From a virus (Duplodnaviria; Caudoviricetes): a stretch of DNA of 64,000 nucleotides. Positions 29,366-47,160 of this stretch are shown one piece after another (positions within the stretch are counted from its first letter, which is position 1; each line of letters opens with the position of its first letter). The position numbers and the translations under genes are program-made. A model generated the notes under the pieces. It did not search any database, was not told the origin of the DNA, and saw only the letters and a program-made list of their open reading frames with translations. The stretch is from positions 32,001-96,000 of IMG/VR virus record IMGVR_UViG_3300031867_000021. The stretch is one strand, 5' to 3'.

Positions 29366-30775
29366 TTACTTCTTGTAATTCGCATTGCGGGCAGCCATGA
29401 TCCGCTTGCCCAGATCGGCTTCAGCCTTCCGCTGAGCAGCAGCCTTGTCAGAAGCCTTCTTGCGCTGCTTCAGGGCCAGATAATCATTCCGCTTGGCCTT
29501 AGCGGTCATGCCGCAGCTCTTCCGAATGGAAGCGGCAGCAGCATCGGCAGCAGCCTTGCGCTCGGAGGGAGGCAGCTTGGCAATCAGAGGTTTCACCGCC
29601 TTGACGGCAGCACGCATCGCATCACGGGCACGCTTGTCGGTCACGGGGGCGGTTTTGTTCTCGGCCGCCAGAGCCTCTTCCTCGTCCTCATCCTCTTCGT
29701 TGATTTCTTCGGGATCAACGAAATGGGATTCGGGCTCTTCGGGATCCTCGTCGGGAGCAACCAGCTCTTCCTCGTCGGGATCGGCTTCCTCGTCGGCGTC
29801 GGTTTCGGCCTCTTCGGTCTTTTCCTCGCCCTCGGCCAGTTCGTCCTCCAGCTTCTGCAGAGGATCCTCTTCTGGAGCTTCGTCCAGCAGCTGCTTCGCC
29901 ACCAGCTTCTCCAGCAGACTGATCACCTTGTCCAGCTTGTCCTCATCCACAGCGGGCTTCGCGGCGGGATCCTGAGCTTCCTCTTCATCCTCATCCTCAT
30001 CCTCTTCGGTAGCCGCCTTCTGGGTGGGCATCTTCTGCAGCAGATCGGTGATGGTGTCCAGCTTCTCGGTCACTTCCGCGTCCATCGCCTTCGGCTCTTC
30101 CTTCTCGGGCTCAGAAACGATCTCATCAATCGCCTCTACCGCCTCGGCAACTTCTTCGGGCTCAGCGTCCTTCGCAAAGGAAGCCAGCATCTTAGCCAGG
30201 ATTCCATGTTTGTTCTTGCGCATTCTGTGATTTCTCCTTTCGTTGTTTGGGGCAGAGTCTTTTATGCAAACGCGGTGACCGGCTCGCCCTTTGTCCACAA
30301 TGGCGATATGGTTACCACGGATTTGCCGTTGAACCAGCTTTCCGTCTTCCTCGCAAAGCTCGTAGTTGTATCCGCAGGAAATCTCCCGCTTTCCGTCCAG
30401 AACCTTCTGGATGGTGTCAGGGTCGGTGATGAACAGATCGGCAATCAGCATGTTCTTTTCATCCCCGGTTCCCCGGTGAACATTCTGCACATGCCCGCGA
30501 GAAAGCCATTTGGCATTCTCGGCGGTTACACCCTCATCACCGTCCGGGTGGTCATCCGTGACCGGCAGTCCCTCGAATGAGGCCATCGTCGTTTCAGAGA
30601 AAACCTCTTCCTCCGGGCGATATACGGTGACCATCTCGTCCCCGTCCTGATCCACCTCTTCCGGCAGATACTTTTGCGTTCCTGACCGCGCAATCGGAAC
30701 ATTCACGCAGATGAGATAGCCTTCCGGCTCTCGCTTGCGGATGTTGTCAGATATCCGAGTCGCGTAGTACAGCAT
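29366..30775 (-). CDS. Prohead protease/scaffold (DUF2213)
   Basis: PEGYLIC.NVPIARSG.Q.Y, VYRPEEEVF, SFEG.PVT.DHP, REISCGY, IRGNHIAIV.KGRAG; acidic scaffold tail. Confidence 0.9.
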   Translation of the reverse strand: MLYYATRISDNIRKREPEGYLICVNVPIARSGTQKYLPEEVDQDGDEMVTVYRPEEEVFSETTMASFEGLPVTDDHPDGDEGVTAENAKWLSRGHVQNVHRGTGDEKNMLIADLFITDPDTIQKVLDGKREISCGYNYELCEEDGKLVQRQIRGNHIAIVDKGRAGHRVCIKDSAPNNERRNHRMRKNKHGILAKMLASFAKDAEPEEVAEAVEAIDEIVSEPEKEEPKAMDAEVTEKLDTITDLLQKMPTQKAATEEDEDEDEEEAQDPAAKPAVDEDKLDKVISLLEKLVAKQLLDEAPEEDPLQKLEDELAEGEEKTEEAETDADEEADPDEEELVAPDEDPEEPESHFVDPEEINEEDEDEEEALAAENKTAPVTDKRARDAMRAAVKAVKPLIAKLPPSERKAAADAAAASIRKSCGMTAKAKRNDYLALKQRKKASDKAAAQRKAEADLGKRIMAARNANYKK

Positions 30776-30801
30776 TTGCATCACCTTCCTTTCTGGCCAC
30801 A

Positions 30802-30838
30802 ATAAAAGCGCGCCGGTTAAATTCCGGTGCGCTTTATT
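30802..30838 (-). terminator. Hairpin/terminator after HD gene
   Basis: AAAGCGCGCCGG...CCGGTGCGCTTT inverted repeat. Confidence 0.6.
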
Positions 30839-31649: not shown

Positions 31650-33254
31650 TCAGGGGAAATTCTTAATTCTTTCAATGTTTCTGGGCCTTTTTAAACCTGA
31701 CATATTATTATACATAATATTGCCAAGCTCGTCCTTCCGCTTCTGTGCCGTTTCCGGCTTTCTCTGCTCTTCGTACTGAGGATGCTGCACTTCCTTGCCG
31801 ACCAAGCTCTCCGGCGTATGGAACTGAAGCTCGAATCTCGTGCCGGTCGGTGATTCGAATACGCAGTTAACACCACGATAAGCTTTTTTGATGGAATAAC
31901 TGTCCCACGTATTCTTGACTTTTACGGTTTTGTACCCCTTGGCTTCGAGCGCCTTTTGAGTCTTCTCGAAATGCTCCACCAGATTGTCAGTCGTACATGC
32001 CTGCGTGTAACGAACCAGATCGCTCAGATTGTCCGCAGCTTCTTCGTATGTCGGATAAGTTCCATCCGCCCTTCTTTCGGACATTGTTTCAGCGATCTTA
32101 TCCGCCACACGGCAACCGCCATCGCTGCTGTCGGAAGCTTTCTTCAGCCGATATTCAAGTCCGAACATTTCAGTGCCAAGATCATCGGCAATATCACACA
32201 GATCATTTGTGATTTTCGGCTCGTTGGCAAGATCCTTTTTGTATTTTTCAACGGCGTAAGGTTTCAGCTTGGATGAGATATTTCCCAGGAACTTTTTGGT
32301 CAATGCCTTGCTTTCGGCTTCGGTCGGCCGCCCGGCCTGCGGTTTGCTCATGATTCCTTCATATCTCTCATAGATTTCGCGTTCCTCAGAGCCGGCAGGC
32401 CACTGCTTCGCTTTTTCCTTGCACATCACGGACGCTTCACGACACGCACTGGCAACTTTATCAAGATTCTGCTTTGCGGCCTTGCTCAGCTTGCGCGGCG
32501 TCTCGGAACCAGTTCTCTGCGGATCGTAGGCCACTGAAGCCGGTTCCTTCATTGTTTCGGCATTCTTGGTTTTGGTTCCTTTTTCAAGCAGCCACGGGCC
32601 GTCGTGCTGCTCGACAAGCAGGTCACTGCTGATTCCGTTCTGTTTTGCGAACTTTTCGATGATCTTGCTTTCGCTGTACGTCTTTGAATAAGGCATCGTA
32701 ACAGATTCGCGCCCAGGAGCGGATATTGTGCAATACGGCTTTGACCTGCCAGACTTTCCGCGGCTTTCCCAATTGAGCCGGATCTTCGCTTCCTCTACAT
32801 CAAAATTGGAAACATCCGGCTTCGTGCCACCCCATCTGCCATACCAATTTTCTGGAACACCGGTTTTTGTCGGCTTTGAACTTTTTCCGTTTCCCACGAA
32901 AAAAGTGGTGTAATTTCCAAACTCACTCTTGGCCGGTTTCACTGCAGCAGGCTTTGCGGCCGCTTTCGCCGCTCTTCTCGCAGCAGTCTGGGCTTTTCCT
33001 TCGGCCTTGACCTCGCCCATGGTCTTGCCCTTCATGTTGGAGGGTCCTTTGTCGATCTTTCCCTTGGTTCCTCCACCGCCGCCTTCGGAAAAATGAACCT
33101 TGGTTCCGCCCTCCAGCGTCCGCCAGCCGCTGTCCTCGTCATCTTTGGCGATTTTCTGCATGCAGGCATCGGCTTCCATCAGGCTTTCGATTTCCTCAGC
33201 TTTCAGCGAATCCAGGGCTTTCATTTTAGCCACGAGCTTCAGCAGTTTTCCCAT
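31650..33254 (-). CDS. Tagged effector 5: C-terminal RelA/SpoT-type (p)ppApp synthetase-like toxin (Tas1/Apk2-like)
   Basis: EPKIT, GLEYRLK, D.VRYT, KVKNTW, YRGVN, FELQFHTPES, H..YE..R; N-terminal DSGWRTLEGG.KVH tag variant. Confidence 0.85.
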   Translation of the reverse strand: MGKLLKLVAKMKALDSLKAEEIESLMEADACMQKIAKDDEDSGWRTLEGGTKVHFSEGGGGGTKGKIDKGPSNMKGKTMGEVKAEGKAQTAARRAAKAAAKPAAVKPAKSEFGNYTTFFVGNGKSSKPTKTGVPENWYGRWGGTKPDVSNFDVEEAKIRLNWESRGKSGRSKPYCTISAPGRESVTMPYSKTYSESKIIEKFAKQNGISSDLLVEQHDGPWLLEKGTKTKNAETMKEPASVAYDPQRTGSETPRKLSKAAKQNLDKVASACREASVMCKEKAKQWPAGSEEREIYERYEGIMSKPQAGRPTEAESKALTKKFLGNISSKLKPYAVEKYKKDLANEPKITNDLCDIADDLGTEMFGLEYRLKKASDSSDGGCRVADKIAETMSERRADGTYPTYEEAADNLSDLVRYTQACTTDNLVEHFEKTQKALEAKGYKTVKVKNTWDSYSIKKAYRGVNCVFESPTGTRFELQFHTPESLVGKEVQHPQYEEQRKPETAQKRKDELGNIMYNNMSGLKRPRNIERIKNFP

Positions 33255-33950: not shown

Positions 33951-36332
33951 TTAAGTCCAGGACAGACGTATCTCCGGGAACTGAACATTCATTCCGTTAA
34001 GCTCGGAATTGTCGTTCCGATTTACCGGAGCTTGTGCTTTATCCAGAATTTTATCGCAATATTCGAGATTTGGCAACGCGTTGTCTATGCGAAGAAGCTT
34101 TGGCCTCCAGTTTCCTCCAGTCTCGGAATTAAGAGAGATTCTATCTAAGTATTTCTCAATCTCTTCCCCTCTGTGTTCCACAGCCATCTTCGTCGGATTT
34201 GGCTGAGGATCGAACAGGACAAGCTCATCTCCACGCTTTTCGGCAATAATGACATGAGCACCAGCTCTGCGGCCTTTCCAGCAGAATGAGAATGTGAACA
34301 TCTGCCCCGGCTTTATACTGTCATTCAGCCATTCTTTGGCACTCTTTGCGTTTAGTTTCTTTTCTGGAACAACATATTCAGGCATCTCACCGGTATCTGG
34401 ATCCATCCACGCGACAGCCTGATTGGCCGCGATTGCGAGCTGGGTTTGATCTGCATCTCCAGCTCTCAATTTGGCACTTACATCATAACCGCGTCGTCTT
34501 AATGCATACGCAATTACGCAAGTCTGACAATTTCCTCTTTGCTTCTTTGTGGCCACATCCCTAAGCGGATTGGCTTTCCCCTGATCCGCTTCTTCATGAG
34601 ACATATCTCCGCTTGCTCTTCTTGCAACCCCTGCCACCTCTCTCGGATGATACATCTCCTCAATTTCTTCGGGAGTATGAGTCTCATGCCATGCCTCAAT
34701 CAGGTTTCTTCTGGCTTCCGCATGCATTTGACGCTCTTCTTCAGCTCGGGCTTTTTCGGCGGCTTTTTTCTGCTTTTCGAGTTCTTTTGCTTCTTTATTT
34801 TTTTGCTCCTGAGCTTCCGCGCTGCTTGGCTCTGCACCAACCATCATTTTTTCCTGCAACAAAATATAATCGCGAAGCGGTTTCTGAGCGTCCTTTCCGC
34901 GAATCAGGTTTCCATTGAGGCTTTGCATGATATCTTCCGCAGCATAAAAGTGATCATGAGTGAGCTCGGAAACGCTTGAAGGCTTCTGAAGCATGGCATA
35001 ATCGCGATTCCACAAATAAGCGTTCCTGCTTCTGCGGCCTATATCAATATACTTATTGACTGTATCCAGCAAAAGCTCTTTTTCCTGGTCTGTGAGCCTG
35101 TCAAGCTCTTCCTGCCTGACAGGCCCTCCCATCATCGACCCGGCATCGCCATAGATCCTGCTTCTGAGCTGCCAGACAGCCCTCATTCCGTAATAGCTGA
35201 GTTCGTTCGGATTCATCTTGTCGTAGGCAACCTTGTCGATGAAATCCTGATTCAGCTTGGCAAACTTCTCTGCTGTATACGCAGATGTATTCTCTGGCTG
35301 CCTTCCAAGCGCACTGGAAAGATAGCTTTCCATCATGCCGCGTCTGGTCGGCTGATACCAGCTGTAATCTCCGTTTTTCGGAGTTTCAGGAGCAACAGGC
35401 TCCGGCGGCGGCGCTGGCCGTTCCTTAGCTCCGGCATTGTACAATATTTCATCTGGAACTTCGTTTCCTGAAGTCGGACAATTCAGCGCCTTGGCCTTTA
35501 TGTCCATCCAGACAAAAGCATCATCTTTCTCCCATCTGGTGAACCCTTCTCCGTCATCTGGAACTTCAGAGCCGTTCGCCTCAATCATGCCATATTTGTT
35601 TTTCAGATAATCGACAACCTTCTTGTCGGAATCCGAAAGCTTTTCATCCATGTACTCCTTGGCATTTTCCGGCCACCCACGCCCTTCGGCTATGAAGTCG
35701 GTAAGCTCTTTTCGTTTTTCGAGCGGCTGGCACTTCATGACGAAGTCTTCCGGGGTCATATCTTCCGTGAACTTCTCGAGCCCGGAATCCCGCAGCACAT
35801 CGTCACGCTCTGTGGCGGTCAGCATTCCACTTGTCCACAGTTTATTCAGCCTGTTCACAACTTCCTTGCTGTGGTTCATGTCTCTTTTAATGTCGCCGAT
35901 CGCCTTTACCGCTTCGATCTGCCGTTCCCCGGAAAGGTTCTGAAGCCAGTCCTTTTTCTTCGCTCCGGAAGCCCCACCGGAACCGGAAGAACCGCCAGAA
36001 GAACTCCACGGGCTGCCAGACGTACCGCCCGAGCCCGGTAGAGCAACCTTCGGATGCTTCGGCCGCATAGGTTCTCCACTCTTTTTGACGCCCCAGGATT
36101 CTCCGATCCGCTTCCCATTGAATCTTCCGCCGAATCCAGCCTTGATCTCCCCTGTAGAAGTCTCAAGCCGGAAATGCTTTCCCTCTTCAGAAGTCCGCCA
36201 AACCTCTTCGTCGCTGGCAACCTCTTCAATGGCTTCCGCATCCAGTCCAAGCAATTTGAGGGCGAAAGGCAGATACTCACTCTTCGGATTAGCCTCTGCA
36301 AAACCCAGGAACATCTTTCCGATTGCACTCAC
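33951..36332 (-). CDS. Tagged effector 4: C-terminal papain-fold Tox-PL (protease/glutamine deamidase) toxin
   Basis: NCQTCVIAYALRRRGYDV.A (Cys), W......HV (His), FDPQ (Asp), RIDN; N-terminal WRTSEEGKHFRLETSTGEIKAGFGGRFNG; GTG start with GGAGGTG RBS. Confidence 0.82.
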   Translation of the reverse strand: MSAIGKMFLGFAEANPKSEYLPFALKLLGLDAEAIEEVASDEEVWRTSEEGKHFRLETSTGEIKAGFGGRFNGKRIGESWGVKKSGEPMRPKHPKVALPGSGGTSGSPWSSSGGSSGSGGASGAKKKDWLQNLSGERQIEAVKAIGDIKRDMNHSKEVVNRLNKLWTSGMLTATERDDVLRDSGLEKFTEDMTPEDFVMKCQPLEKRKELTDFIAEGRGWPENAKEYMDEKLSDSDKKVVDYLKNKYGMIEANGSEVPDDGEGFTRWEKDDAFVWMDIKAKALNCPTSGNEVPDEILYNAGAKERPAPPPEPVAPETPKNGDYSWYQPTRRGMMESYLSSALGRQPENTSAYTAEKFAKLNQDFIDKVAYDKMNPNELSYYGMRAVWQLRSRIYGDAGSMMGGPVRQEELDRLTDQEKELLLDTVNKYIDIGRRSRNAYLWNRDYAMLQKPSSVSELTHDHFYAAEDIMQSLNGNLIRGKDAQKPLRDYILLQEKMMVGAEPSSAEAQEQKNKEAKELEKQKKAAEKARAEEERQMHAEARRNLIEAWHETHTPEEIEEMYHPREVAGVARRASGDMSHEEADQGKANPLRDVATKKQRGNCQTCVIAYALRRRGYDVSAKLRAGDADQTQLAIAANQAVAWMDPDTGEMPEYVVPEKKLNAKSAKEWLNDSIKPGQMFTFSFCWKGRRAGAHVIIAEKRGDELVLFDPQPNPTKMAVEHRGEEIEKYLDRISLNSETGGNWRPKLLRIDNALPNLEYCDKILDKAQAPVNRNDNSELNGMNVQFPEIRLSWT

Positions 36333-36353
36333 TGCTTTCACCTCCGTTTTGCC

Positions 36354-36385
36354 ATAAGAAAAGCCCGGCACTCTCGTGTCGAGCT
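36354..36385 (-). terminator. Repeated terminator-like hairpin (copy 2 of 3)
   Basis: ATAAGAAAAGCCCGGCA...TGTCGAGCT. Confidence 0.65.
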
Positions 36386-36403: not shown

Positions 36404-36619
36404 TTAAGCGTTTTTCTCTATCCAGTCTTTTGCAGCATCTGGAACTTCAACATTTTGGTCTTCAACATAGTCCATATATGGATCAAAACGAAGAAACTGG
36501 TTCGGTGCAACACCGAAGCCACCAAATGTTTTTCCGTTCCCGTAATAATATCTTCCATCTGGCAATGATACAAGCACTACGCCACGGTCGTCTTTGTAGA
36601 GCACCTTTAATCCTTCCAT
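36404..36619 (-). CDS. Candidate immunity protein for effector 3
   Basis: 71 aa, start overlaps the effector stop codon region. Confidence 0.6.
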   Translation of the reverse strand: MEGLKVLYKDDRGVVLVSLPDGRYYYGNGKTFGGFGVAPNQFLRFDPYMDYVEDQNVEVPDAAKDWIEKNA

Positions 36620-38790
36620 CTGATTTCGACCCCCCGTTGCTTTGCTAAACTCTCAATTTGTGCCCTGTCTTGGGAATTCTTGGGAATTTCTAAATATTCG
36701 ATATCAGATGTTTGGATTCCTCCGTGAAACTGCAACTCTACATAATCCGTTGCGGTTTTTCCACTCTGGGCTATTTCGCTAAAAGTCCTTTCTGTGCGCT
36801 CAAGAACCTCTTTTGGTAGGCTTGCTCCAGAAAACGGATTCATTCCAAGAGAGTATATCTTTGGATCCGTCACAAGTGTTGGGACTTGCGAATTTCCAAG
36901 CTGCTTCTGCTGCAGGCTATCCCCAACGGTGAATGTCGTCCGGGTTTTTACATTGTCTTTTTTAAAGACTATTCTACAGTCGCCGTACATCTTGGCGCGT
37001 TCTGCGTGATCAAGAAAACCATATAGCTCATATTGATCATCGCCGATTTCGAGAGCATCCCCGCCATTGAAGAGATCCACGGCCAACGATTTCCGCATTT
37101 GAATATCTTTGTGCCCATTCGATTCTCCGGTTTCAATCTGTGACTTCATTCTCCCATCTTGAAGGATCCCTAAAATGGCATTCGACTTTGTTCTGGCAGA
37201 AAAATCATGCTTATCCAGGGCATCCTTCAGGATTCGCTCATACTCCGGCGTCCGCTTTGAGTATGTATCGATTGCTGCTGCCTGTTCAGGGCTCGTTGAG
37301 GAATATCCTCGTTTCACTTCATCGATATAATTATCATACGATTCTTTGTAAATGGGCATCAGCTCATCGTAAGCCTTCATCGTTGGAGTTTCCCGATAGC
37401 TTGGAGCCGTAACAGCAGTTTCACTGGCGCTTGCACTTTCTGTTCCCGCCGATTCATTTTGGCTTTCAGTCTCAGATTCCAACTTTGGCTGCTCTGCCTG
37501 CGTCTCTTTTTTCCCTTTGGAATTTTCCGGCGTGAAAGTATACTCAAACCCATACTCAGCGGCATGCTGCTTATAAAACTCATGGAACGGCTCGGTTTCC
37601 AGCCTTCGGATCTCGTCTTTCCGCTCCTGCGCAGCCTTTTTAGAAAGCTCATCATAACCAGATTTATCGAAATATGCCTGCAGGATCTCATTTGAGGCTC
37701 CGGCGTCCTTCATCTTGACCCATGTTTGAGCAATTTCTTCAAGCTTTCGGCGAGTTTCGTTCCCCTTCAGGTTTGCATCTGCTTGTTTCATCAGATCCAG
37801 GACTGAAACCTCGGCGGGAACGGCTTTCTCCAAAGCATCCCTCATCCCGAGCCATCCACCGTTCACTTCTCCCCTGCCATACCTCTGATTCCTCAGCGTA
37901 TAAGTCCCTTCAGGCGTGCTGACACGAATTTCAGTCGCTCCGTAGCCGAAATCATCCAGATCGTCATAGGAGAATGTCCCTCCGGCCGGATGATTGTGAA
38001 GCGAAATCGCTCCCGGCAGATGTTCTCGATTGGTTCCAACCGTCATGCCGACAGAATGCTTATCGCCCTTGGCCTGCGCCCTGATTTCACCATCTGGGCC
38101 AACGATGAAAGACTGCTCGTTCTTGAGATTGGCGATCCTCTTTTCAATCTTCCTGAGCGCCTTGTCCTGCTGCGGGGTATTAGTGGGAAAAGGCTTTGCG
38201 TCCTGATGCTCTTCATCCCACAAACCGCGCTTTTTAAGCTCTTCCCGGCAAGCTTCCATCTTGGCCTGCGTCTCCGCCATCGAATCAAGATAGCTCTTTC
38301 TCACGCCAGCATATTCCTGCTTTTTGGTCTCAGGAAAGGTTTCGTATTCCTTCAGAAATTTTTTGGCCTTTTGCAGGTCTTCGTTGTGTCTTCCGAACGC
38401 TCTGCCAACACCCGTATCTCCAAAGCCTTGAACCTTTTGCCGCAATGATTCCACGTTAGCTTTCTGACTTTCGGTCAGCGCCGGAGCCTTCGGCGTTTCC
38501 ACGGTTTTTGGAGCCGCTGCAGCCTGTTTTCTGCCGGCGGCGCTATTTTTGAAGACTGAACCAAGCTTTTCACCGTTGAACTTTCCACCGAACCCGGCTT
38601 TAATCTCTCCGGTCGTGGTTTCCAACTTAAAATGGCGCCCCTCTTCTGAAGTGCGCCATACTTCCTCGTCGGCAGTTGTTTCTTTTTGACTATTGGCATC
38701 AAAGCCAAGCATTTTTAAGGCAAGATGTAGCGATGCGGTTCTGGGGCTTGTCTTTGAATACTCATAAAACAATCGTCCAATGGTTTTCAT
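36607..38790 (-). CDS. Tagged effector 3: central JAB/MPN-like domain + C-terminal DUF3626-like (ART-like) domain
   Basis: E.S.IV..DG...HNHP.GGTFS..DL; R.KSQ.ETG.S.G...YG.L...YG...K..RTTFT.GDSL...YVELQFHG; N-terminal tag. Confidence 0.72.
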   Translation of the reverse strand: MKTIGRLFYEYSKTSPRTASLHLALKMLGFDANSQKETTADEEVWRTSEEGRHFKLETTTGEIKAGFGGKFNGEKLGSVFKNSAAGRKQAAAAPKTVETPKAPALTESQKANVESLRQKVQGFGDTGVGRAFGRHNEDLQKAKKFLKEYETFPETKKQEYAGVRKSYLDSMAETQAKMEACREELKKRGLWDEEHQDAKPFPTNTPQQDKALRKIEKRIANLKNEQSFIVGPDGEIRAQAKGDKHSVGMTVGTNREHLPGAISLHNHPAGGTFSYDDLDDFGYGATEIRVSTPEGTYTLRNQRYGRGEVNGGWLGMRDALEKAVPAEVSVLDLMKQADANLKGNETRRKLEEIAQTWVKMKDAGASNEILQAYFDKSGYDELSKKAAQERKDEIRRLETEPFHEFYKQHAAEYGFEYTFTPENSKGKKETQAEQPKLESETESQNESAGTESASASETAVTAPSYRETPTMKAYDELMPIYKESYDNYIDEVKRGYSSTSPEQAAAIDTYSKRTPEYERILKDALDKHDFSARTKSNAILGILQDGRMKSQIETGESNGHKDIQMRKSLAVDLFNGGDALEIGDDQYELYGFLDHAERAKMYGDCRIVFKKDNVKTRTTFTVGDSLQQKQLGNSQVPTLVTDPKIYSLGMNPFSGASLPKEVLERTERTFSEIAQSGKTATDYVELQFHGGIQTSDIEYLEIPKNSQDRAQIESLAKQRGVEIRWKD

Positions 38791-38815
38791 CGTTATCACC
38801 TCCCCACAAAAACGC

Positions 38816-38955: not shown

Positions 38956-40530
38956 TCAGCGTGAAAGCTCCGATTGTTTCGGAGCTTTTCTTGCTTTATA
39001 TTCAAGGCATTTATATGCCCCGTCTTTGTCGATTATTAAAACGCTCAAGTCCTGTTTTGAGCGTTTCGTGAGAGCCTTTTCGATTTTATTTTCTGCTTCT
39101 TCGATAGTGGCGCCACACGCACTTATATCAAAAATCAAGCCTCTGCTGTTTGGGGCAATTTGATTTAAGCCACTCCGAATCCTCAAGTCGAACGCATTTT
39201 GTGAATTGCTTTCCGGCGTTTTCAGATCCCAAAGTCCACCGCGCCAGAAATAATCAGGGTTGCTTTCATCTCTCAAAAAGTTTTCAGACAGAACAATCAA
39301 ATTCCCGCCGAATAGCTGATGCAATCTTTTCCCCATTTTTATCTCTGCGGCACTATGTTTTTTATCAACCCTGGTCATAACATAGAATGCGCCGGAACCT
39401 GGTTCTGCTTCCTTCTCGAACTCTTCCGTTTTGTCTCTTATTTGTTTTTCGGCTTTTGTGCCAGATTCTTTTCCCTGAGTATCGTATGTGGTTTCCGTCT
39501 CCCGCATGGTTGCATCAGCCGGCGCAACCTGCCGGCCTATAATCGCGACTGGAATAGTCTCGACCCCGTTCATCATGGCAGCCAGAGCCCTGTGCCGACC
39601 TTCCTGATTTTCTGTCGCATAGTCCAGATAAGGAATCGGGAATTTCTCCCCGTTTTCCATCAGATCGGCGTATTTATTGACCTTATAGGCTTCGGTTCCC
39701 GCAACAGTGTTTTCCAAGGTGCTGTTCGTGAAAATCTCGAAAGCGCATCTTTCCAGATATTCTTTCGGGCTCATCTCGACAACCTTGGCGCTTCCGTTCT
39801 TCAATTTTTCCCGCAGAGCCGGAACATCCGATTCCAGCGTGAAGCCCTCGAAATCTTTCCTTGTCGTTTCCTTAAGCTCCGGGTTGCCCCACTCGGCGAT
39901 TTCATCAGAACGCTTCTGACGCTTCAGCTCATCCATTTTCCCGCCGTACTCTTCGGCCTCCTGCCCGGCCTTCTGAGACTCAGCAAAGCAGTCATCATAT
40001 TCCTTCTTGAGCTGTTTGCCCTTCTCGGTATACCAGCCGAAGAGCCCGGCATATTGCGGCCCCATTGACTTCGCGTCGTCATCCGGGTACTCGATTTCAT
40101 TCTTCAGCTCTCTGCTGATTTCCAGGAACCTCTTTGAGGCAGCGTCTTTCCTCTTCGTGGCATCAGCCCACTTGGTTCTTGCCGCTTCAAAATCCGGGTC
40201 ATTGATGAGGTTCTTCTCTCCCACGACAGAGGAAATCATTTTCGCTGTGCTTTCAGGCCGGATCCTCTTCGGCTTAGCTGCAGCTGGTTTCTTCGCAGAC
40301 TGGCCGCCGCTGAAAGCTTCCTTCAGCGTCTCGCCGTTGTGCTTCCCTCCAAAACCAGCCTTGATCTCACCGGTACCAGATTCGAGCTTTATATGATGGC
40401 CTTCCTCGGTTGTTCTCCAGACTTCTGCATCATGTCCGAAAAGCTTCACCAGGAACTGAAGGGCCTTGTTCTTCCCTTCCCTATGCGCATAGGCTTTGTA
40501 CAGCTCAGCTCTGATTCCCATGCGCATCAC
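38956..40530 (-). CDS. Tagged effector 2: ParB/Srx-like domain + C-terminal CdiA-type PD-(D/E)xK (tRNase-like) nuclease
   Basis: MSPKEYL...KFP.P.L...QEGRHRALAA...IPV; E...G..L....GG...L.E....PDY.W.G.LWDLKTP...G..QI...GLIFD; N-terminal tag. Confidence 0.75.
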   Translation of the reverse strand: MMRMGIRAELYKAYAHREGKNKALQFLVKLFGHDAEVWRTTEEGHHIKLESGTGEIKAGFGGKHNGETLKEAFSGGQSAKKPAAAKPKRIRPESTAKMISSVVGEKNLINDPDFEAARTKWADATKRKDAASKRFLEISRELKNEIEYPDDDAKSMGPQYAGLFGWYTEKGKQLKKEYDDCFAESQKAGQEAEEYGGKMDELKRQKRSDEIAEWGNPELKETTRKDFEGFTLESDVPALREKLKNGSAKVVEMSPKEYLERCAFEIFTNSTLENTVAGTEAYKVNKYADLMENGEKFPIPYLDYATENQEGRHRALAAMMNGVETIPVAIIGRQVAPADATMRETETTYDTQGKESGTKAEKQIRDKTEEFEKEAEPGSGAFYVMTRVDKKHSAAEIKMGKRLHQLFGGNLIVLSENFLRDESNPDYFWRGGLWDLKTPESNSQNAFDLRIRSGLNQIAPNSRGLIFDISACGATIEEAENKIEKALTKRSKQDLSVLIIDKDGAYKCLEYKARKAPKQSELSR

Positions 40531-40534
40531 CCCT

Positions 40535-41374
40535 TTACGAAATCTTCCCGAACTTCTTTTTAATCTGGTTCTTCGTCCAGTAACCTACTTTTCCGTGATA
40601 ATGCAGCCTGACCGAATCCGGCAGGTTCCTGATATCAACAACCGGCTCCTGATAGCACCGGCAGTTGAAGGTATTTCCCGCGTGATACCGTCCATAAGAA
40701 CTCTGACCCGCACCCGGAAACAGAGCTTCAGGGTTTGGCGGATCATCATAGAACACGAGAATTCCATCCATTGAGCCGTGGGAATGTCTCGTGCGCTCAT
40801 CATGGCAGGAATGCCAGATATAAGCCTTGATTCCAAGGTTCTCGGCTCTGGCCTGCGTGAGTGCCGCATTTGCTTTGCCGCACTCTGTCCGCGCGATGCA
40901 CTTCAGATTTCTGGCAATCTTCTCCGGCATGATCTTCCGAAGCTCTTCCTCAATCTCTTCCGGCCGCCGGCCCTTCTGCGTCTCCCGCTCGGTGTAGGCG
41001 GTTATATAAGCGGCCCATTCCATCGGGACTGTCTTGATGTACTTTGAGTTTTCGGCAATCAGCTCTTCAACCCGCCTGCCGACAGGCCCTTTCATCTCTT
41101 CCATCAGGGCTTTGTACATCTCCCGGCCGTAGGTGTTGCGGAGAACGGCTTCCCGCCAGGAATGAACAGACTCATCTCTCTCCCGCTTGACCATGTTTCC
41201 GACAACCTCATCCACCCGCTGCCCAAGGGTCAGCCGATGAACCCACTCTTTCATCTTCTGGGTAACGTTGCCTGAATTGATGGCCCCGGATCTTGTCTGC
41301 TGCGAGATCCCGGAAAAGATTTTGCACAGGTTCTTCCAGAATGATCGTTCCGTCGAACGTTTCACGGCAATCAT
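40535..41374 (-). CDS. MuF / SPP1 gp7-type head morphogenesis protein (short form, no toxin extension)
   Basis: IARTE..KA, YIW....DERTR.SH, HAG..FNCRC..EP. Confidence 0.9.
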   Translation of the reverse strand: MIAVKRSTERSFWKNLCKIFSGISQQTRSGAINSGNVTQKMKEWVHRLTLGQRVDEVVGNMVKRERDESVHSWREAVLRNTYGREMYKALMEEMKGPVGRRVEELIAENSKYIKTVPMEWAAYITAYTERETQKGRRPEEIEEELRKIMPEKIARNLKCIARTECGKANAALTQARAENLGIKAYIWHSCHDERTRHSHGSMDGILVFYDDPPNPEALFPGAGQSSYGRYHAGNTFNCRCYQEPVVDIRNLPDSVRLHYHGKVGYWTKNQIKKKFGKIS

Positions 41375-41669
41375 CTTTCATCACCTGCCATCTGAAGGTA
41401 AAATTAAGCGGCTGGCGGCATCGACGGAATGCCGCCATTTAAGCGAATCTATATTCAGGAGGGAAATCCGGAATGAAGAAAAGGAGATTACTTCATGAAA
41501 AAGAAGAGTGAGGGGATTCCGTCTATCGCACCGCTTTGAGATCCGGACAGGCGAACCGGACTCGCGGACGTCCGGCCACCACCCCTTTCGTCCGCTTCCC
41601 CCGCTAACGCATCAGAACCCTCCAGCTGGAGGCCCTTCTGGAGGAAACGGATTGGGGCTGTTTTAAGGT

Positions 41670-41701
41670 ATAAGAAAAGCCCGGCGGCAATCCGTCAGGC
41701 T
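41670..41701 (-). terminator. Repeated terminator-like hairpin (copy 3 of 3)
   Basis: ATAAGAAAAGCCCGGCG...CGTCAGGCT. Confidence 0.65.
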
Positions 41702-41727
41702 TCTCCCTGGAACTCTATTTATACTTT

Positions 41728-41961
41728 TTAAGCGGGTGAGGATTTGCACCTCACATGATCCATTCGTTATTGCTCTATAGTGCCAACTTAAGGTTTGTTT
41801 TGCTCTTCAGCTTGCCGCCCTTGCCTCTTTTAGTTTATAAAACTATACCAGTCTCATTGGTTCTGGAAGGTCTTATCAGTTGGATCACATCACGCAACTC
41901 CATGCAGGGAGCGACCCTTGAATGTCTTTACACTACGTCTACCTGTTCCGCCACCGCTCAA
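41728..41961 (-). ncRNA. tRNA-like RNA with ~180-nt insert between D-arm and T-arm
   Basis: 5' UGAGCGG-UGGCGGAACAGGUAGACG (tRNA-Leu-like D-arm); 3' GUGAGG-UGCAAAU-CCUCAC-CCGCUUA (T-arm + acceptor); internal helix UGAUCCA/UGGAUCA. Confidence 0.6.
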
Positions 41962-41977
41962 TAAAGTATTATTGAAT

Positions 41978-42172
41978 TTAAAGAAGCATGTCCACCGATG
42001 AACATGCTTTTTCGACCGGGTCAAATAATTCTCCCCGGCTCTGGCATAGCTTTTCAACCCTGCACAGGTCTTCGTAGCCGCTTCGGCCTATTGCAAGATC
42101 GAACTCCCTGCGGAGTTCTTCCAAACTCATATTGCGCCCGCAGCCGAATTCATCCTGATACTTATGAACCAC
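41978..42172 (-). CDS. Small hypothetical protein
   Basis: 64-aa ORF, weak support. Confidence 0.4.
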   Translation of the reverse strand: MVHKYQDEFGCGRNMSLEELRREFDLAIGRSGYEDLCRVEKLCQSRGELFDPVEKACSSVDMLL

Positions 42173-42234
42173 TTCATCCCTGAACTCTGCGTATGATTTC
42201 GTGGCTCATCACCCCCCCCATGACCGGCAGCCGC

Positions 42235-42480
42235 TTATTCGAAACACATCTCAAGGCAATAAGAAGTGCTGGCCACGCAGGCTTTATAGAAGGCTTCGTC
42301 GCTCAGATCATCATCTTTTCCCTTGCCTTCTTCGTAGCCTTTATATCGCCCATCGATCGTTTCCATCTCTGAGTTGATATAAGCTTCAAAATCCTCTTCG
42401 GACAGGTCATAACAGGCAAGCGCTTTTTTCAGATCGGCCTTTACATCATTGACGAACTGGTCTCGACTGATTTTTCCCAC
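42235..42480 (-). CDS. Candidate immunity protein for the portal-fused effector
   Basis: 81 aa acidic, starts 3 nt after the portal stop with GGAGG RBS. Confidence 0.55.
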   Translation of the reverse strand: MGKISRDQFVNDVKADLKKALACYDLSEEDFEAYINSEMETIDGRYKGYEEGKGKDDDLSDEAFYKACVASTSYCLEMCFE

Positions 42481-42483
42481 CGC

Positions 42484-45400
42484 TTACACCTCCATGCTGT
42501 CGTCCCGAATCTTTTTCGCCTTGGAATAATCTTCCTCAGGTTTGTGAGAAGCCACATATTCATCACAGTTCTTTCCGTGCGCTTTCCATATTTCTTCCCT
42601 GCTGCGCCCGGTATACTTGAAGAATACAACCGGCTCTTTCTGGTCTCTGGTTCTGTCCCAATCCGGCGGCCTTATCCCTTCGATATCAGCAAACTCGCAA
42701 TAGCTTGTCGGCTCGAATCCGTTCTTTGTGTAAAACTCGTACAAACCGCCAAACGCATCAAGTTTATTTCCGCCCTTCATTCTTGCGAACTCAAGGAGCT
42801 GACTTCCTGTGACTCCACGATCTCCGGGATGTTTGCACACGCTCACGATATCGCCATCGTGAACCGCAACAGCAGAACCGCCCTTTGTCGTGAAGCACTG
42901 CATTTTCGCATAATCCTCCACGGAATAGGTTCCATCCACACGCCAGGATTTATCTGGCTGCACGTCCTGCACCGCTTTCTTTGCCGCATGGAAAGTATCG
43001 TAAAACTTCTGCGGCTCAGTTTGCTGGAAATTATCCGGGTTCAGCGGGGCTTTCGTTCGTCCGCTCCCGGTTCCACTTCCATTATACGCCGAATTATTCT
43101 GATTTACAATACTTTCGGACGTATTTTCTCCACCCGCATTATACTGCGTTTCCGGCTCTCTGGCAACGGGCGCCATCGGAACGTTTTCGCCCCAGAACAT
43201 GGACTGCTGTCCAGGAACCTCCACCCGTTTCTCGACTCCCGCATACTTTTCAAGCAGATCGTCCGAGAAGTTCGTTTCAATCTCCGCGCCCAGGAGCTTT
43301 GCCTGGAGCTGAATTCTGGCGATTACCGCTTCCGGGTGATCGCTTTCCCATTTTTCTTCCTGAGCGAACGGGACATCACTGTACTCTTCAGTGATGTTTG
43401 CCAGAATGTCCTGTTCTCTCGGAGTCAGACGCTCTGCCCACTGGGCAGGTACTGACTTAAGCCCGAACTCATTCGTAGCTCGAATTTCACCATTTCTGGC
43501 CTGATTCCATTCATCGGAATACTGAACTGAATTGGCCAGATTGTTGAGCGCATTATCCGCTTCGTCCAGATCAACAGCAGGATTCTCAAGAACCTTTTTG
43601 GCATTTTTTCGGGCATTTTCATAATCCCGAAGCTCCGTCTTTATGGTTGCTGCCTTTTTCTCGCTTCCATCTGAATACTTGCTGAAACTTACGGGAATAT
43701 CCGGCATCTTTGCCTTGGGAGGCGTGACCTTCGGCGGAGCGGCGACCTTTGTCCCCTTCGCTCTGGCCTTGGATCCGCTGCCGGATCCCCACTGCTCACC
43801 AAGCTTCTTACCATTGAACTTGCCGCCGAAACCAGCTTTGATTTCGCCGGTTGAAGTTTCCAGCTTGAAGTGCCGGCCTTCCTCGCTCGTCCTCCACGCT
43901 TCAGCATCAATGCTGAACAGATTCTGAACAAACTTGGCCGTCTGCTCCCGGCTGTGGTCGGCAGCGTACTGCTTAATCAGCCTGACCCTCTGGTCCGAAA
44001 AACCGGAATAATCCGGCTTATCCCGACCGATGAGAGACTTGACCTTTTTGCGCACCCAATCAATGACCCCACTGTTGGGCTCTTTGCCCTCTCTGGCCTC
44101 TTCGGGCTTTCGGGCGGGAGTTTGGTCATTCTCCTGCTCTGCCTGCTCTTTGGGCTCATTCTGGGCTTCCGCAGGCACGCTCTTCTGCGTGGCCTTCGGC
44201 TCCTCTTCCGGCTTCTCCGCTGGCTCGGCTTCAGGTTTTGAGACTGGCTTCTGTTCCGGCTTCATTTCCGGTTTTTCCGGCCTTTCCTCCGGCTTTACTT
44301 CCGGCTTTTCCTCCGTGGCTTCAGGCTTCTCTTCCTCTGGCCCTTCTTCAGGCGGCATCATACCGCCCATGGCGGCCATCGGATCCATTCCTCCGCCGGG
44401 ACCACCATCTGGCCCCTCAGGTCCTTCAGGACCGCCCGGCCCCATGCCGCCCATCATGCCGCCCATGGGGTCGCCCATGCCTTCGCCTTGATCAACCTCG
44501 GTTTCGGCGCTTTCAACAATTTCATCCGTAATGGATCCCCATGCGCCGACATCCTTGCCGCTCTTCTGCAGTTCTATCAGAGCGGTCTGCTGCGAGATCA
44601 ACCCGGCAGAGAACGCATTAATCACGGTTCCGGTCACCTGCGAGATAATATTCGCCCTTTCGGAAGGCGTAGTCACCTGCAGAGGCTCGAACACGACATG
44701 CATGCCATCCGGGATCTTCCCCCAAAGACTCATGCACATGACCGGCAGCAGCTTCTCAATCGCCGGGCGCAGGTTGCGCTCCTGCAGCTGAGCCAGCATT
44801 TCATAATAGTTCTTCATGTCCGATTCTCCGGTGGCATTCATGCCCTGCGGAGAACGTCCATACAGCTTGGTCGCCGGAATTTCGGCGGCACCTGCCATAT
44901 CCATCATGAAGGACTCATAGATTTCAGACAGACCGGAGAAGGAATAGGGATGCTGTTCGTACCCGTCCTGCGATCCCATGATCATCATGCCGAAAGAATT
45001 CCGGTAACGGTTTTCTTCCTCAATGCTCTCAATGATCGCCTGCTTCTGCTTCTCCGTGCCCATGCCCATGATTTCACCAAAATCGGCCATTTTAAGCACG
45101 CCGACATTGGCCTGAAACACGAGCTGAGCAATATTCGCGCTGGTCGCATTTCTCTTCTGAAGCTCTTCATAAACGTGCTCCAGCTCAGATGCTCCCCAGT
45201 AGCTTTCCGAAACCTCTTCCATGATCGGAAGCATCCGTCCCCGGAACATCAGGAGCCGGGAATGATGAATCCGCATGGTCTGGTTTGTCTCGTTATTCAG
45301 CCGGACTGTGTAATATTTCGGATATCCGAACTCGATATCGTCCATATCCTCTTCCAGCTCAACAGAAGGATCCAGTCCGCTCGTCCGATCTACGACAATC

Positions 45401-45894
45401 AGGCCCCGGAAGCAACCCGGCACCAGATCGTCATAATCCAGCGGTTCATCCAGCATATCCTCCTGCCCCTTGATCACGATCACGGCAGCAGCACCGCCAT
45501 AAAGCCTCGCCCAGCGCAGCGCATTGGTGATTTCCTGCTTCACGCTGTGCTTGGATTCCAGCTCAGCCAGCTCATCCAGCTTATCCTGATCAAGATTGGA
45601 GGAAATCGTATACCAGGAGCGGGTCATATCTTCACAGGGGGTGTCAATAATCCGCTTCGCGATCCAGTTTTCACGGTAAGCCACGGTCAGCGTCTCGTAA
45701 TCCCGGCTGATATAATTCCGCTCGAAATCGTTCGCCTGACTTAGTAATGAAGCTTCACCGAGATAGGCCAACCTGTTAATGAACCCGTCATTGGCAGACA
45801 GGATTTTCAGAGGCAACGCGCCACGCTTGGTCGCATCCGCGCCCTGATTCTGAATCTGTCTCGCACGAATGTTGCGTCTTTTTTTGCTCGACAT
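42484..45894 (-). CDS. Portal protein (DUF1073-type) fused to linker, tag and C-terminal GNAT-like effector (tagged effector 1)
   Basis: Y..NWIA.RIID.P.EDM.R, WARLYGG, IHHSR, AGAAEIP.TKL.GRSP.GMNATGESD..NYY; then WRTSEEGRHFKLETSTGEIKAGFGGKFNG; then DGDIVSV...GGNKLDAF..L..FY...GF.P. Confidence 0.88.
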   Translation of the reverse strand: MSSKKRRNIRARQIQNQGADATKRGALPLKILSANDGFINRLAYLGEASLLSQANDFERNYISRDYETLTVAYRENWIAKRIIDTPCEDMTRSWYTISSNLDQDKLDELAELESKHSVKQEITNALRWARLYGGAAAVIVIKGQEDMLDEPLDYDDLVPGCFRGLIVVDRTSGLDPSVELEEDMDDIEFGYPKYYTVRLNNETNQTMRIHHSRLLMFRGRMLPIMEEVSESYWGASELEHVYEELQKRNATSANIAQLVFQANVGVLKMADFGEIMGMGTEKQKQAIIESIEEENRYRNSFGMMIMGSQDGYEQHPYSFSGLSEIYESFMMDMAGAAEIPATKLYGRSPQGMNATGESDMKNYYEMLAQLQERNLRPAIEKLLPVMCMSLWGKIPDGMHVVFEPLQVTTPSERANIISQVTGTVINAFSAGLISQQTALIELQKSGKDVGAWGSITDEIVESAETEVDQGEGMGDPMGGMMGGMGPGGPEGPEGPDGGPGGGMDPMAAMGGMMPPEEGPEEEKPEATEEKPEVKPEERPEKPEMKPEQKPVSKPEAEPAEKPEEEPKATQKSVPAEAQNEPKEQAEQENDQTPARKPEEAREGKEPNSGVIDWVRKKVKSLIGRDKPDYSGFSDQRVRLIKQYAADHSREQTAKFVQNLFSIDAEAWRTSEEGRHFKLETSTGEIKAGFGGKFNGKKLGEQWGSGSGSKARAKGTKVAAPPKVTPPKAKMPDIPVSFSKYSDGSEKKAATIKTELRDYENARKNAKKVLENPAVDLDEADNALNNLANSVQYSDEWNQARNGEIRATNEFGLKSVPAQWAERLTPREQDILANITEEYSDVPFAQEEKWESDHPEAVIARIQLQAKLLGAEIETNFSDDLLEKYAGVEKRVEVPGQQSMFWGENVPMAPVAREPETQYNAGGENTSESIVNQNNSAYNGSGTGSGRTKAPLNPDNFQQTEPQKFYDTFHAAKKAVQDVQPDKSWRVDGTYSVEDYAKMQCFTTKGGSAVAVHDGDIVSVCKHPGDRGVTGSQLLEFARMKGGNKLDAFGGLYEFYTKNGFEPTSYCEFADIEGIRPPDWDRTRDQKEPVVFFKYTGRSREEIWKAHGKNCDEYVASHKPEEDYSKAKKIRDDSMEV

Positions 45895-45912: not shown

Positions 45913-47160
45913 TTACTTGAAATATCCTGCCTTATCCACCAACCGGGCACAACAGGCCGCCGAGTCCGGCGCGTCATCATGCTCCGCATCCTCGGTATAA
46001 TCCAGAATCTGCGCCAGATATTCCGGGTCGGTTCCATCCAGCCATTTGATATTCGGCCACCATTTCCGCAGGTAGCTCGAAATCTTCACGTACTTATTGT
46101 CGGACTCATGATATCCATGGGGATATCTCTCTCTCCGGCGAATTTCCTTTCTCAGGAAACCCTTATCGGAGTTATCCTCCACGTGAATCGGGTAACATCT
46201 GAGCCGGTCGCATTCCGCAATGATCGCATCCAGCACGGTGTCCACATGCTTCTGCCAGAGCCGGCCATACATATAAACCGTATCGCCAACTCTTCTGGCA
46301 CAGGTCAGCGCTGTGTAGTCCTCGCCGCCGTAGGCCGCATCCACATGGGCAAAGCCATCGAACAGATTCTGCTCATCCTTGAAGAACTCCGGTGACTGAG
46401 TGAACAGAGCGTTCTCGGAAGCGATATGCCGCAGCTCGTAGTTCGCCGCAAACAGAGAAGGGGTCATGTCCCGGCGGAGCTGAGCGATTTTCTCTTCCGT
46501 CAGCATCCCCGTCCGGCGATAATCCCAAATCTCCGGCTTCGGCATGATCGTGAAGGCATCTTCCTTATGCCAGGGCGTTCCGGTATTGATAATCCGGCCG
46601 CCAGGATTCCGCACATTCTGCAGTTCCTGATAAACGGCTTTCGTATGTTCCCGTTCGGCCTTGGAGACTCGGTCTTTCAGGTTGACAATATCGTCCGTGA
46701 TGACGATATCCGCATGCTTACCGGTCAGAGAACCGGAAATACCCATGCCGAGGAGCTGCGAAGCCCCTCTCGGCGCAGAATAGCAGGAAGTCGTGATTTC
46801 GTTCGCGGTCGCCCGCAGGACTACCAGCGGAAATCCGGTCAGAGCCATGTAAATCTGCTGAAAGATATCTGAATTCAGGATCCGGTTCACGTTCTTGATG
46901 ACTTCCGTCACGTCCGTGTCCGTCTTCCTCAAGAAGATGACGTTCCTGTCCCGGTTCCGAATGATAATCAGCGAAATCGCAATGCACAGGCAGGTCGTTT
47001 TATATGAACCACGGTGCGCCTGCAGCGTGAAATCTTCCTCCCCGGCAACCATATGCCGAATCCATCGGTCATGCATCTCATTCAGGTTGGAATAACCGAG
47101 CGCCTTGCCAAGGGCCATCGGGTGAGCGATAAACCACGCCGCTTTTTCCCTCTGCGTCAC
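45913..47160 (-). CDS. terL: Terminase large subunit
   Basis: AHRGSYKT Walker A, TGKHAD..ITDD Walker B, GTPWH..D, HVDAAYGGEDYTA, HDDAPDS nuclease motifs. Confidence 0.92.
   Translation of the reverse strand: MTQREKAAWFIAHPMALGKALGYSNLNEMHDRWIRHMVAGEEDFTLQAHRGSYKTTCLCIAISLIIIRNRDRNVIFLRKTDTDVTEVIKNVNRILNSDIFQQIYMALTGFPLVVLRATANEITTSCYSAPRGASQLLGMGISGSLTGKHADIVITDDIVNLKDRVSKAEREHTKAVYQELQNVRNPGGRIINTGTPWHKEDAFTIMPKPEIWDYRRTGMLTEEKIAQLRRDMTPSLFAANYELRHIASENALFTQSPEFFKDEQNLFDGFAHVDAAYGGEDYTALTCARRVGDTVYMYGRLWQKHVDTVLDAIIAECDRLRCYPIHVEDNSDKGFLRKEIRRRERYPHGYHESDNKYVKISSYLRKWWPNIKWLDGTDPEYLAQILDYTEDAEHDDAPDSAACCARLVDKAGYFK

Follow-up and report, generated by a model that had tools for sequence, protein, structure and literature searches.

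The window considered here is a stretch of 64,000 nt (positions 32,001 to 96,000) of the IMG/VR record IMGVR_UViG_3300031867_000021, a virus of the Caudoviricetes, and all coordinates below are those of the window. On its minus strand, the ORF listing of the window contains an uninterrupted open reading frame (ORF) of 1136 aa (42484-45894), in which a phage portal protein continues into a low-complexity tether, a leader and tag module, a helical domain and a C-terminal domain predicted to have the GNAT fold. An acidic ORF of 81 aa, the predicted partner of the GNAT domain, follows directly downstream. The runs holding the window DNA are bovine, goat and sheep gut metagenomes, and the closest cultured relative of the portal that was found is that of Agathobaculum phage AB434P2 (42% identical). 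The features of the locus are as follows.

44485..45894, minus strand: portal domain (PF06381 / TIGR01555 type), residues 1-470, from Pfam, phrog_146 and TIGR01555
44008..44484, minus strand: low-complexity tether, residues 471-629, Gly/Met/Pro-rich then Glu/Lys/Pro-rich, from composition and tandem repeats
43711..44007, minus strand: leader and tag module, residues 630-728, from alignment to free-standing effectors
43798-43902, minus strand: tag core, residues 665-699, part of the leader and tag module
43228..43710, minus strand: predicted helical domain of unassigned function, residues ~729-889, AlphaFold2 (AF2) model with predicted local distance difference test (pLDDT) values of 92-98 at model residues ~100-260
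43033..43227, minus strand: predicted disordered spacer, residues 890-954, pLDDT <50 at model residues 271-331
42487..43032, minus strand: predicted divergent GNAT-fold domain, residues 955-1136, from AF2 and fold matches
42235..42480, minus strand: 81-aa acidic partner ORF, GTG start, predicted inhibitor or immunity protein of the GNAT domain from family linkage and complex model
40535..41374, minus strand: separate MuF / SPP1 gp7-type minor head protein, cargo-free (PF04233, E 2e-17; TIGR01641)
29366..30802, minus strand: DUF2213 protein (PF09979, E 2e-49)

Layout and continuity of the fusion gene

The N-terminal part of the ORF is a portal protein by several profiles. Pfam places PF06381 (Phage_portal_3) at residues 69-421 with E 5e-108 and a score of 361 bits against a cut-off of 33.8, covering profile positions 3-352 of 357. 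The PHROG portal family phrog_146 matches residues 31-473, and TIGR01555 matches the portal part with E 3e-77 and 260 bits against a cut-off of 196. The ORF starts 19 nt past the end of a terminase-like ORF (45913-47160; weak terminase match) and ends with a TAA stop codon at 42486-42484. The gene order is that of a head module, with the terminase-like ORF upstream and the genes for MuF, the DUF2213 protein and the major capsid protein downstream. An initial annotation of this DNA had put the end of the portal domain at about residue 470, in agreement with the phrog_146 and PF06381 matches, which run to residues 473 and 421. It had also described a linker rich in Gly/Met/Pro and then Glu/Lys/Pro, and residues 471-625 are indeed of low complexity (E 32, P 26, G 22, K 16 and M 11 of 155 residues). 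The linker DNA consists partly of 12-nt tandem repeats (44246-44315 and 44443-44487). A programmed frameshift yielding a plain portal was considered, and no slippery heptamer was found at the portal-linker border. Residues 630-960 were modelled with AlphaFold as one piece, and the model has two leader helices, three short tag strands of low confidence, a confident helical domain and a disordered spacer. Foldseek searches with the helical domain and tag model gave generic helical bundles only (best E 0.2) and no significant PDB fold match, and by BLAST the helical domain is not common to the other tagged effectors of the window.

Continuity across the junction was checked on assembled contigs. 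A 4165-nt contig from run X2, which belongs to a different study, covers 42200-44817, running from the small ORF across the GNAT domain, the tag and the entire linker into the portal domain. It differs from the window by 72 substitutions and by indels of -24 and +1/+11 nt only, and the frame is kept. The contig thus bridges the junction with in-frame indels only, and the initial annotation of a single ORF without a stop is upheld. Contigs of runs X3-X5 have holes over the linker, and such holes prove nothing. The strain variants differ by in-frame changes of -24 and +12 nt in the repeat linker, which indicates that the tether changes in length through slippage in frame. The relative P0004 (locus L003), which comes from another sample, has a portal 79% identical and a GNAT domain 99% identical to those of the window, the same tag and the same 81-aa ORF. 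Its linker is longer and different, and the middle regions of the two proteins are ~50% identical. The near identity of the GNAT domains in portals that differ by 21% suggests recent transfer of a cassette of GNAT plus partner.

C-terminal extensions of 33-984 aa (median 430) are present in 91/91 proteins that are at least 63.5% identical to the portal domain. Among the more distant portals listed, 92/125 have an extension of <60 aa. Fusions to the GNAT domain are seen as well in P0141, whose portal shares just 26% identity with that of the window, and in P0058, whose portal belongs to the PF04860 family. In addition, a split form exists in loci L012, L016, L031 and L040, in which a plain portal gene and, within ~15 nt of it, a solo GNAT gene with a tag precede the partner ORF. 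The split form probably either gave rise to the fused one or derives from it, and suggests how the fusion arose. That the portal-GNAT fusion is an assembly artefact is excluded for practical purposes.

The C-terminal domain and its partner ORF

The last 182 residues were modelled with AF2 on an alignment of 59 relatives. The model has a pLDDT of 96.1, and its topology (b1-a1-a2-b2-b3-b4-a3-b5-a4-b6-b7) is the canonical GNAT order. In a VIA fold search of ~48,000 PDB representatives, all 50 matches listed are GNATs, with Z 8.2-9.9 and root-mean-square deviations of 2.6-4.1 A over 115-131 aligned residues. The top matches include the protein acetyltransferases RimI, NatA and Ard1. The PDB rows listed by Foldseek are GNAT-family entries with probabilities of 0.85-1.0 and E 2e-3 to 2e-2. 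In a viral structure library, the best matches are uncultured-phage proteins of 990-1422 aa (E 1e-10 to 1e-8), one of them named as containing a 'large polyvalent protein associated domain', followed by ordinary phage N-acetyltransferases. The initial annotation had likened the C-terminal domain to the GNAT-like acetyltransferases of phage polyvalent proteins, and the modelled topology and these matches favour both parts of that claim. Polyvalent proteins have at least two effector domains; the fusion has one enzyme-like domain plus the helical domain of unassigned function, and the relatives P0013 and P0105 add NUDIX. The C-terminal domain had no sequence match in Pfam (E<=10) or in the PDB (E<=10, with a single sequence and with a profile), and NCBIfam matched the portal part only. 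The domain was identified by fold alone, since the sequence libraries found nothing, and on this model-based evidence its fold is that of a GNAT.

Relatives of the domain form 728 clusters at E<=1e-3, and the PHROGs entry for the family reads 'unknown function' only. Of 208 carriers of the domain, 148 are short solo proteins, 17 portal fusions, 16 MuF fusions and 27 other long proteins. The domain occurs on MuF and on two portal families, and it is also found with Kinase-PolyVal and NUDIX modules. Motif A of the GNATs (Q/R-x-x-G-x-G/A) is degenerate in this family: within the consensus '[GN]D..[RT]G.[DE]L[LI]' only one Gly (G76) is conserved, and the loop is shorter than the canonical one. The degeneracy of motif A lowers confidence in the use of acetyl-CoA, not in the GNAT fold. 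Y101, in 'FY.KNGFEP' (a4, motif B), is invariant across the 59 sequences and is a putative general acid. D92 (strand 5), C66 (end of strand 4) and E107 are, like Y101, strongly conserved. These four residues point to a working enzyme, and the modelled GNAT-fold domain is likely to be one.

The partner ORF (42235-42480) has a GTG start at 42480, which is 3 nt past the stop codon of the portal-GNAT ORF, and a GGAGG at 42493-42489. A hidden Markov model (HMM) of the partner was seeded from six such ORFs, iterated, and searched against 4111 small ORFs from 59 IMG/VR loci encoding the GNAT domain. It matched 54 of the 4111, each at or overlapping the 3' end of a GNAT gene or match, apart from one second copy 326 nt downstream. 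The partner lies directly 3' of the GNAT in 48 loci by a strict adjacency rule, in ~53 by HMM and in ~58/59 by eye, and five of the six HMM-negative loci have a visibly related ORF at the same place. In many cases its start codon and the stop codon of the GNAT gene overlap (ATGA). The pairing is independent of the carrier, which may be a portal, a MuF protein or a free-standing protein, and the partner ORF is also present in an archaeal (Methanobrevibacter) virus. The family is acidic (median isoelectric point 4.66) and measures 59-151 aa (median 79). It has no Pfam or NCBIfam model, and a Pfam search of 39 partner sequences gave scattered single hits only. A role of the partner as acyl carrier was considered and dropped, as the family lacks a conserved Ser or DSL-type motif.

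A model of the complex of GNAT and partner, built with both alignments, has a score of 0.91, and the best control has a score of 0.01. Three runs agree in >=97% of contacts, with a partner pLDDT of at least 91. In calibration, the mark for this score was reached by 58/80 solved complexes and by 2/110 mismatched pairs. The modelled contacts on the GNAT are residues 67-77 (b4-a3 loop and start of a3), 96-103 (a4) and 127-133, and the tightest contacts come from the conserved C-terminus of the partner. By GNAT topology, the b4-a3 loop and a4 are elements that hold the cofactor. Contacts predicted on these elements would fit an inhibitor that blocks the active cleft. The complex model supports binding of the partner to the GNAT and does not show it. 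The initial annotation had expected an acidic ORF starting 3 nt downstream to be an immunity gene; its position and acidity are as described, and its linkage to the GNAT domain and predicted binding are those of such a gene.

In Microbacterium phage UtzChips (gene 4, L002) and relatives, the C-terminal end of a MuF-type 'minor capsid protein' shares 43% identity with ~100 GNAT residues. In the window, the 860 nt between the 81-aa ORF and MuF (41375-42234) have no minus-strand ORF of at least 65 aa, the largest being 64 and 55 aa at the upstream end. This stretch is partly conserved with L003:10063-10824 and includes tRNA-like 5' and T-arm/acceptor-like segments; no tRNA was called by ARAGORN in the gap 41300-42300.

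Tags and exchangeable cargo

The motif EAWRTSEEGRHFKLETSTGEIKAGFGG stands at residues 665-691 of the fusion and recurs in three ORFs of the window, which encode a CdiA_C domain protein (38956-40530), a DUF3626 protein (36607-38799) and a papain-fold glutamine deamidase (33951-36371). A diverged copy is present in ORF 31650-33254. By BLAST, residues 636-728 align to the N-terminal ~95 aa of the three free-standing effectors with E 1e-20 to 1e-21, which agrees with the shared leader and tag noted in the initial annotation. On this alignment, a complete effector N-terminal module is embedded in the portal ORF. The near-invariant core of this shared module is E[AV]WRTSEEGxHFKLETxTGEIKAGFGG, and its W, R and H are invariant in the alignment of tag copies. 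An exact-tag word search found 11 proteins only, so that the version of the tag in the window is narrow, although the motif class is broad. A search of the ESM Atlas with the tag module gave no usable match.

Many of the 208 carriers have one of a small number of short motifs just upstream of the GNAT domain, and these fall into several classes. Class A is W[IR]T..G.H[IV]P[IL]..G, to which the tag of the window belongs, and class B is [WF].E..HPR...G.F. Further classes are B2 (HD..GRF) and C (DGG.GSGN.GH.GRPG..GGS). Frequencies were counted with relaxed patterns. A tag was present in 86/91 extended portals of the clade, in 1% of the same sequences after shuffling and in 3% of plain portals. 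It was present in 23/23 portal-GNAT fusions of the clade, in 47% of solo GNAT proteins and in 0/16 MuF-GNAT fusions. Many portals have the order tag C, a ~150-aa module, tag B and GNAT, which indicates that tags head modules. In P0288, P0297, P0289 and others, a class-C tag ('DGGPGSG..') precedes a conserved ~150-aa module (..ERAKFMANPT..NRHYWSNDPDSAQKVQSETLKRQKAV..), and an HPR-type tag stands directly before the GNAT. A link of tag classes with the DUF2213 protein or MuF in the 10-kb flanks was also sought, and single-seed jackhmmer matched these in too few loci to judge. In the usual view, MuF departs from the head together with the DNA, whereas the portal remains in the particle. The occurrence of tags on portal fusions and their absence from MuF fusions is the pattern expected if tags mark recognition or cutting by the head-maturation machinery. 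We infer that the tags may be recognition or cut points for head maturation and, in free proteins, also loading signals, by analogy with the capsid-targeting sequence of T4.

The initial annotation had also suggested comparing related portals for exchange of the extension, and such exchange is evident in the clade. When 86 of its extended portals are sorted by their last 200 aa, at least five unrelated groups result, with 35, 23 (the GNAT of the window), 14, 11 and 3 members. P0282, whose portal has 83% identity, follows the protein of the window up to residue 723, a little beyond the tag, where a different domain takes over. Two other types of cargo were checked and have downstream ORFs of 92 aa and 78 aa, unrelated to the GNAT partner; the cargo type of P0286 has no called ORF downstream. 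The portal clade behaves like a polymorphic effector system, with a constant carrier, a tag, an exchangeable cargo and a small ORF that differs with the cargo where checked. In PF06381 portals further removed from that of the window, the fused domains are of the ADP-ribosyltransferase, Zeta-toxin, NUDIX, DUF3626, topoisomerase-I-like and helicase types. Within P0354-P0359 and P0353/P0355/P0358, the cargo includes eukaryote-type topoisomerase I (PF01028/PF21338), SNF2-type helicase and Zeta-toxin/AAA kinase. These three kinds of cargo are not among the portal-fused domains in the available portions of PMC5512222 and PMC9503650. The label 'anti-CBASS protein Acb1 family protein', which a single source gives to the portal-DUF3626 fusion P0351, was not supported by the literature searched and may be an annotation carried over from another fusion.

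Interpretation and comparison with known systems

We read the locus, with a probability of about 0.6, as a portal-carried, capsid-delivered GNAT-fold effector with its cognate inhibitor, in a polymorphic portal-cargo system of rumen phages. The C-terminus of a portal faces the capsid interior, so that each subunit would hold the tag module, the helical domain and the GNAT in the head. The cargo would be held there on each portal subunit by a flexible tether of ~155 residues, with up to twelve copies per virion. The enzyme would be made late in infection together with the translationally coupled 81-aa acidic protein, an immunity-type inhibitor. Bound to the b4-a3 loop and the a4 helix, which form the acetyl-CoA site of GNATs, this partner would keep the enzyme inactive in the producing cell. 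During head maturation, the cargo would be cut from the portal at or near the tag. The DUF2213 protein (29366..30802), which we take to be a prohead protease or scaffold, is a candidate for the cutting enzyme. The cut cargo would then leave with the DNA, free of the untagged inhibitor, and acylate a target in the newly infected cell. The analysis shows the architecture of the gene, the fold, the linkage of the two genes and the polymorphism of the cargo. Binding of the inhibitor is a prediction, and encapsidation, cleavage, ejection, acyl transfer and harm to the cell are steps that we infer. A bolder proposal, which we advance tentatively and would not be surprised to see fail, is that a polymorphic toxin-immunity system has the portal itself as its carrier. 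The clade would deliver twelve copies of exchangeable cargo per virion, a tag from a small interchangeable set would stand before each cargo module as a loading and cut-here signal, and the GNAT with its 80-aa partner would be a new toxin-immunity pair of bacterial and archaeal viruses.

Several points weigh against the delivered-effector reading. The degenerate motif A and the lack of a GNAT profile match leave the use of acetyl-CoA unproven, and binding, not catalysis, could be the role of the domain. Z scores of 8-10 in the fold search are only moderately above the background stated for the tool. The partner was assigned to the cofactor cleft by residue numbering and by the topology of GNATs, and not by superposing structures. 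The partial GNAT segment on the Microbacterium MuF proteins has no partner ORF, and the enzyme is therefore not always paired. Furthermore, twelve extensions of this bulk might get in the way of DNA packaging if they were not trimmed, and there is no known cleavage site.

The cargo could instead be an anti-defence or host-takeover enzyme that acetylates a host defence or regulatory protein on entry, with the partner serving as a chaperone or holding factor, by which the domain would be kept inactive or fit for packaging, and not as immunity that protects kin. This overlaps with the effector-inhibitor reading and differs from it only in the target and purpose of the cargo. Fusions of portal or MuF proteins to 2H, Nudix and ADP-ribosyltransferase domains are mostly read as injected counter-defence enzymes in the available portions of PMC5512222 and PMC9503650, and inactivation of Cas12a through acetylation by an anti-CRISPR is mentioned in an editorial abstract (PMC13728456). 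The co-occurrence of the GNAT domain with NUDIX and Kinase-PolyVal modules and the presence of RimI, NatA and Ard1 among the top fold matches point the same way. An enzyme harmless to its producer, however, needs no almost obligatory, translationally coupled binder on its cofactor cleft, and the neighbouring tagged cargos include the classical toxin domains CdiA_C and papain-fold glutamine deamidase. On balance we consider the anti-defence explanation unlikely, if deserving of attention.

It is a good deal less probable that the extension is a structural or assembly element that acts inside the head, by organising the DNA or core or by modifying phage proteins or polyamines, and never leaves the virion. 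Such a role would suit a portal that stays in the particle with no demonstrated cleavage site, and the helical domain of unassigned role. Long structural C-terminal extensions of portals also exist in other phages, for example the P22 barrel. The swapping of at least five unrelated cargo families within one portal clade and the presence of the same GNAT on MuF carriers and free tagged proteins nevertheless speak against it, and a structural role would not readily explain why the partners differ with the cargo. An artefact of assembly or gene calling, or a recent accidental read-through without function as a fusion, is scarcely credible. The loci with split portal and tagged solo GNAT and the repetitive linker DNA could be cited in its favour, but the independent contig of the other study stays in frame despite indels of -24 and +12 nt, all 91 related portals have extensions, and the GNAT fusion recurs both on the portal of 26% identity and in a second portal family (PF04860).

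Proteins injected by phages act before phage gene expression; few have been studied experimentally, and most are invisible to annotation. The locus adds a predicted GNAT-fold family of 728 clusters that is unnamed in the sequence libraries searched, an unnamed partner family that is almost always with the GNAT and is predicted to block its cofactor site, and a portal clade with exchangeable cargo in every listed member. Short tags mark the cargo modules on portals and free proteins and not on MuF fusions. Should the tags prove to be signals for loading or cleavage, virion-delivered effectors could be found by sequence alone. In addition, a portal with tethered cargo could offer a natural template for loading proteins of choice into phage heads.

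Known systems share parts of this arrangement. The GNAT toxins of type II toxin-antitoxin systems (TacT, AtaT, KacT and ItaT) are neutralised by a small, directly binding protein whose gene lies upstream and which has a DNA-binding domain. The system of the window would resemble them in a GNAT-fold enzyme with a small partner predicted to bind it. Its partner gene, in contrast, lies downstream, and the protein is acidic, helical and without a known domain, unlike an upstream DNA-binding antitoxin. TacT, AtaT, KacT and ItaT are not among the 50 VIA matches listed. The internal proteins of T4 (IPI-III and Alt) have a capsid-targeting sequence that is removed by the prohead protease. This short peptide heads unrelated proteins of the head interior and is the best available analogy for the tag classes. 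The tags of the window are unrelated to it in sequence and are also internal, standing between portal and cargo and between modules.

Portal fusions to PBECR, 2H, InPase, Nudix and ADP-ribosyltransferase domains have been described computationally, with packaging and injection predicted, and GNATs are among the domain classes of phage polyvalent proteins, according to the available portions of PMC5512222 and PMC9503650 (the latter point from PMC5512222). As in the fusion of the window, a head protein is joined to an enzymatic domain in these effectors. Prior description of portal-effector fusions lowers the novelty of the present case, not its correctness. The same portions of the two papers describe no GNAT on a portal, no portal clade with swappable cargo, no linked inhibitor gene and no tags heading modules, all of which are features of the system of the window. 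Two GNAT families are described in PMC5512222. The literature searched contained no report on this GNAT family on a portal, on the partner family, on a swappable-cargo portal clade with a changing downstream ORF or on tags that head modules.

That the MuF toxins of temperate phages have immunity genes downstream is established and has some experimental backing (PMC5576092; PMC12226406 on Apk2 toxins), and some of the immunity proteins act by direct binding (PMC5576092 / PMC12226406). GNAT cargo has 0 mentions in PMC5576092. The MuF toxins and the system of the window have in common a constant head-associated N-terminal carrier, a variable C-terminal domain (the toxin in MuF) and a small ORF directly downstream, which encodes immunity in MuF toxins and is predicted to do so here. 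In the window, the portal itself acts as the carrier, MuF being encoded by a gene of its own without cargo (40535-41374), and the cargo is preceded by a tag of the kind that the 16 MuF-GNAT fusions lack.

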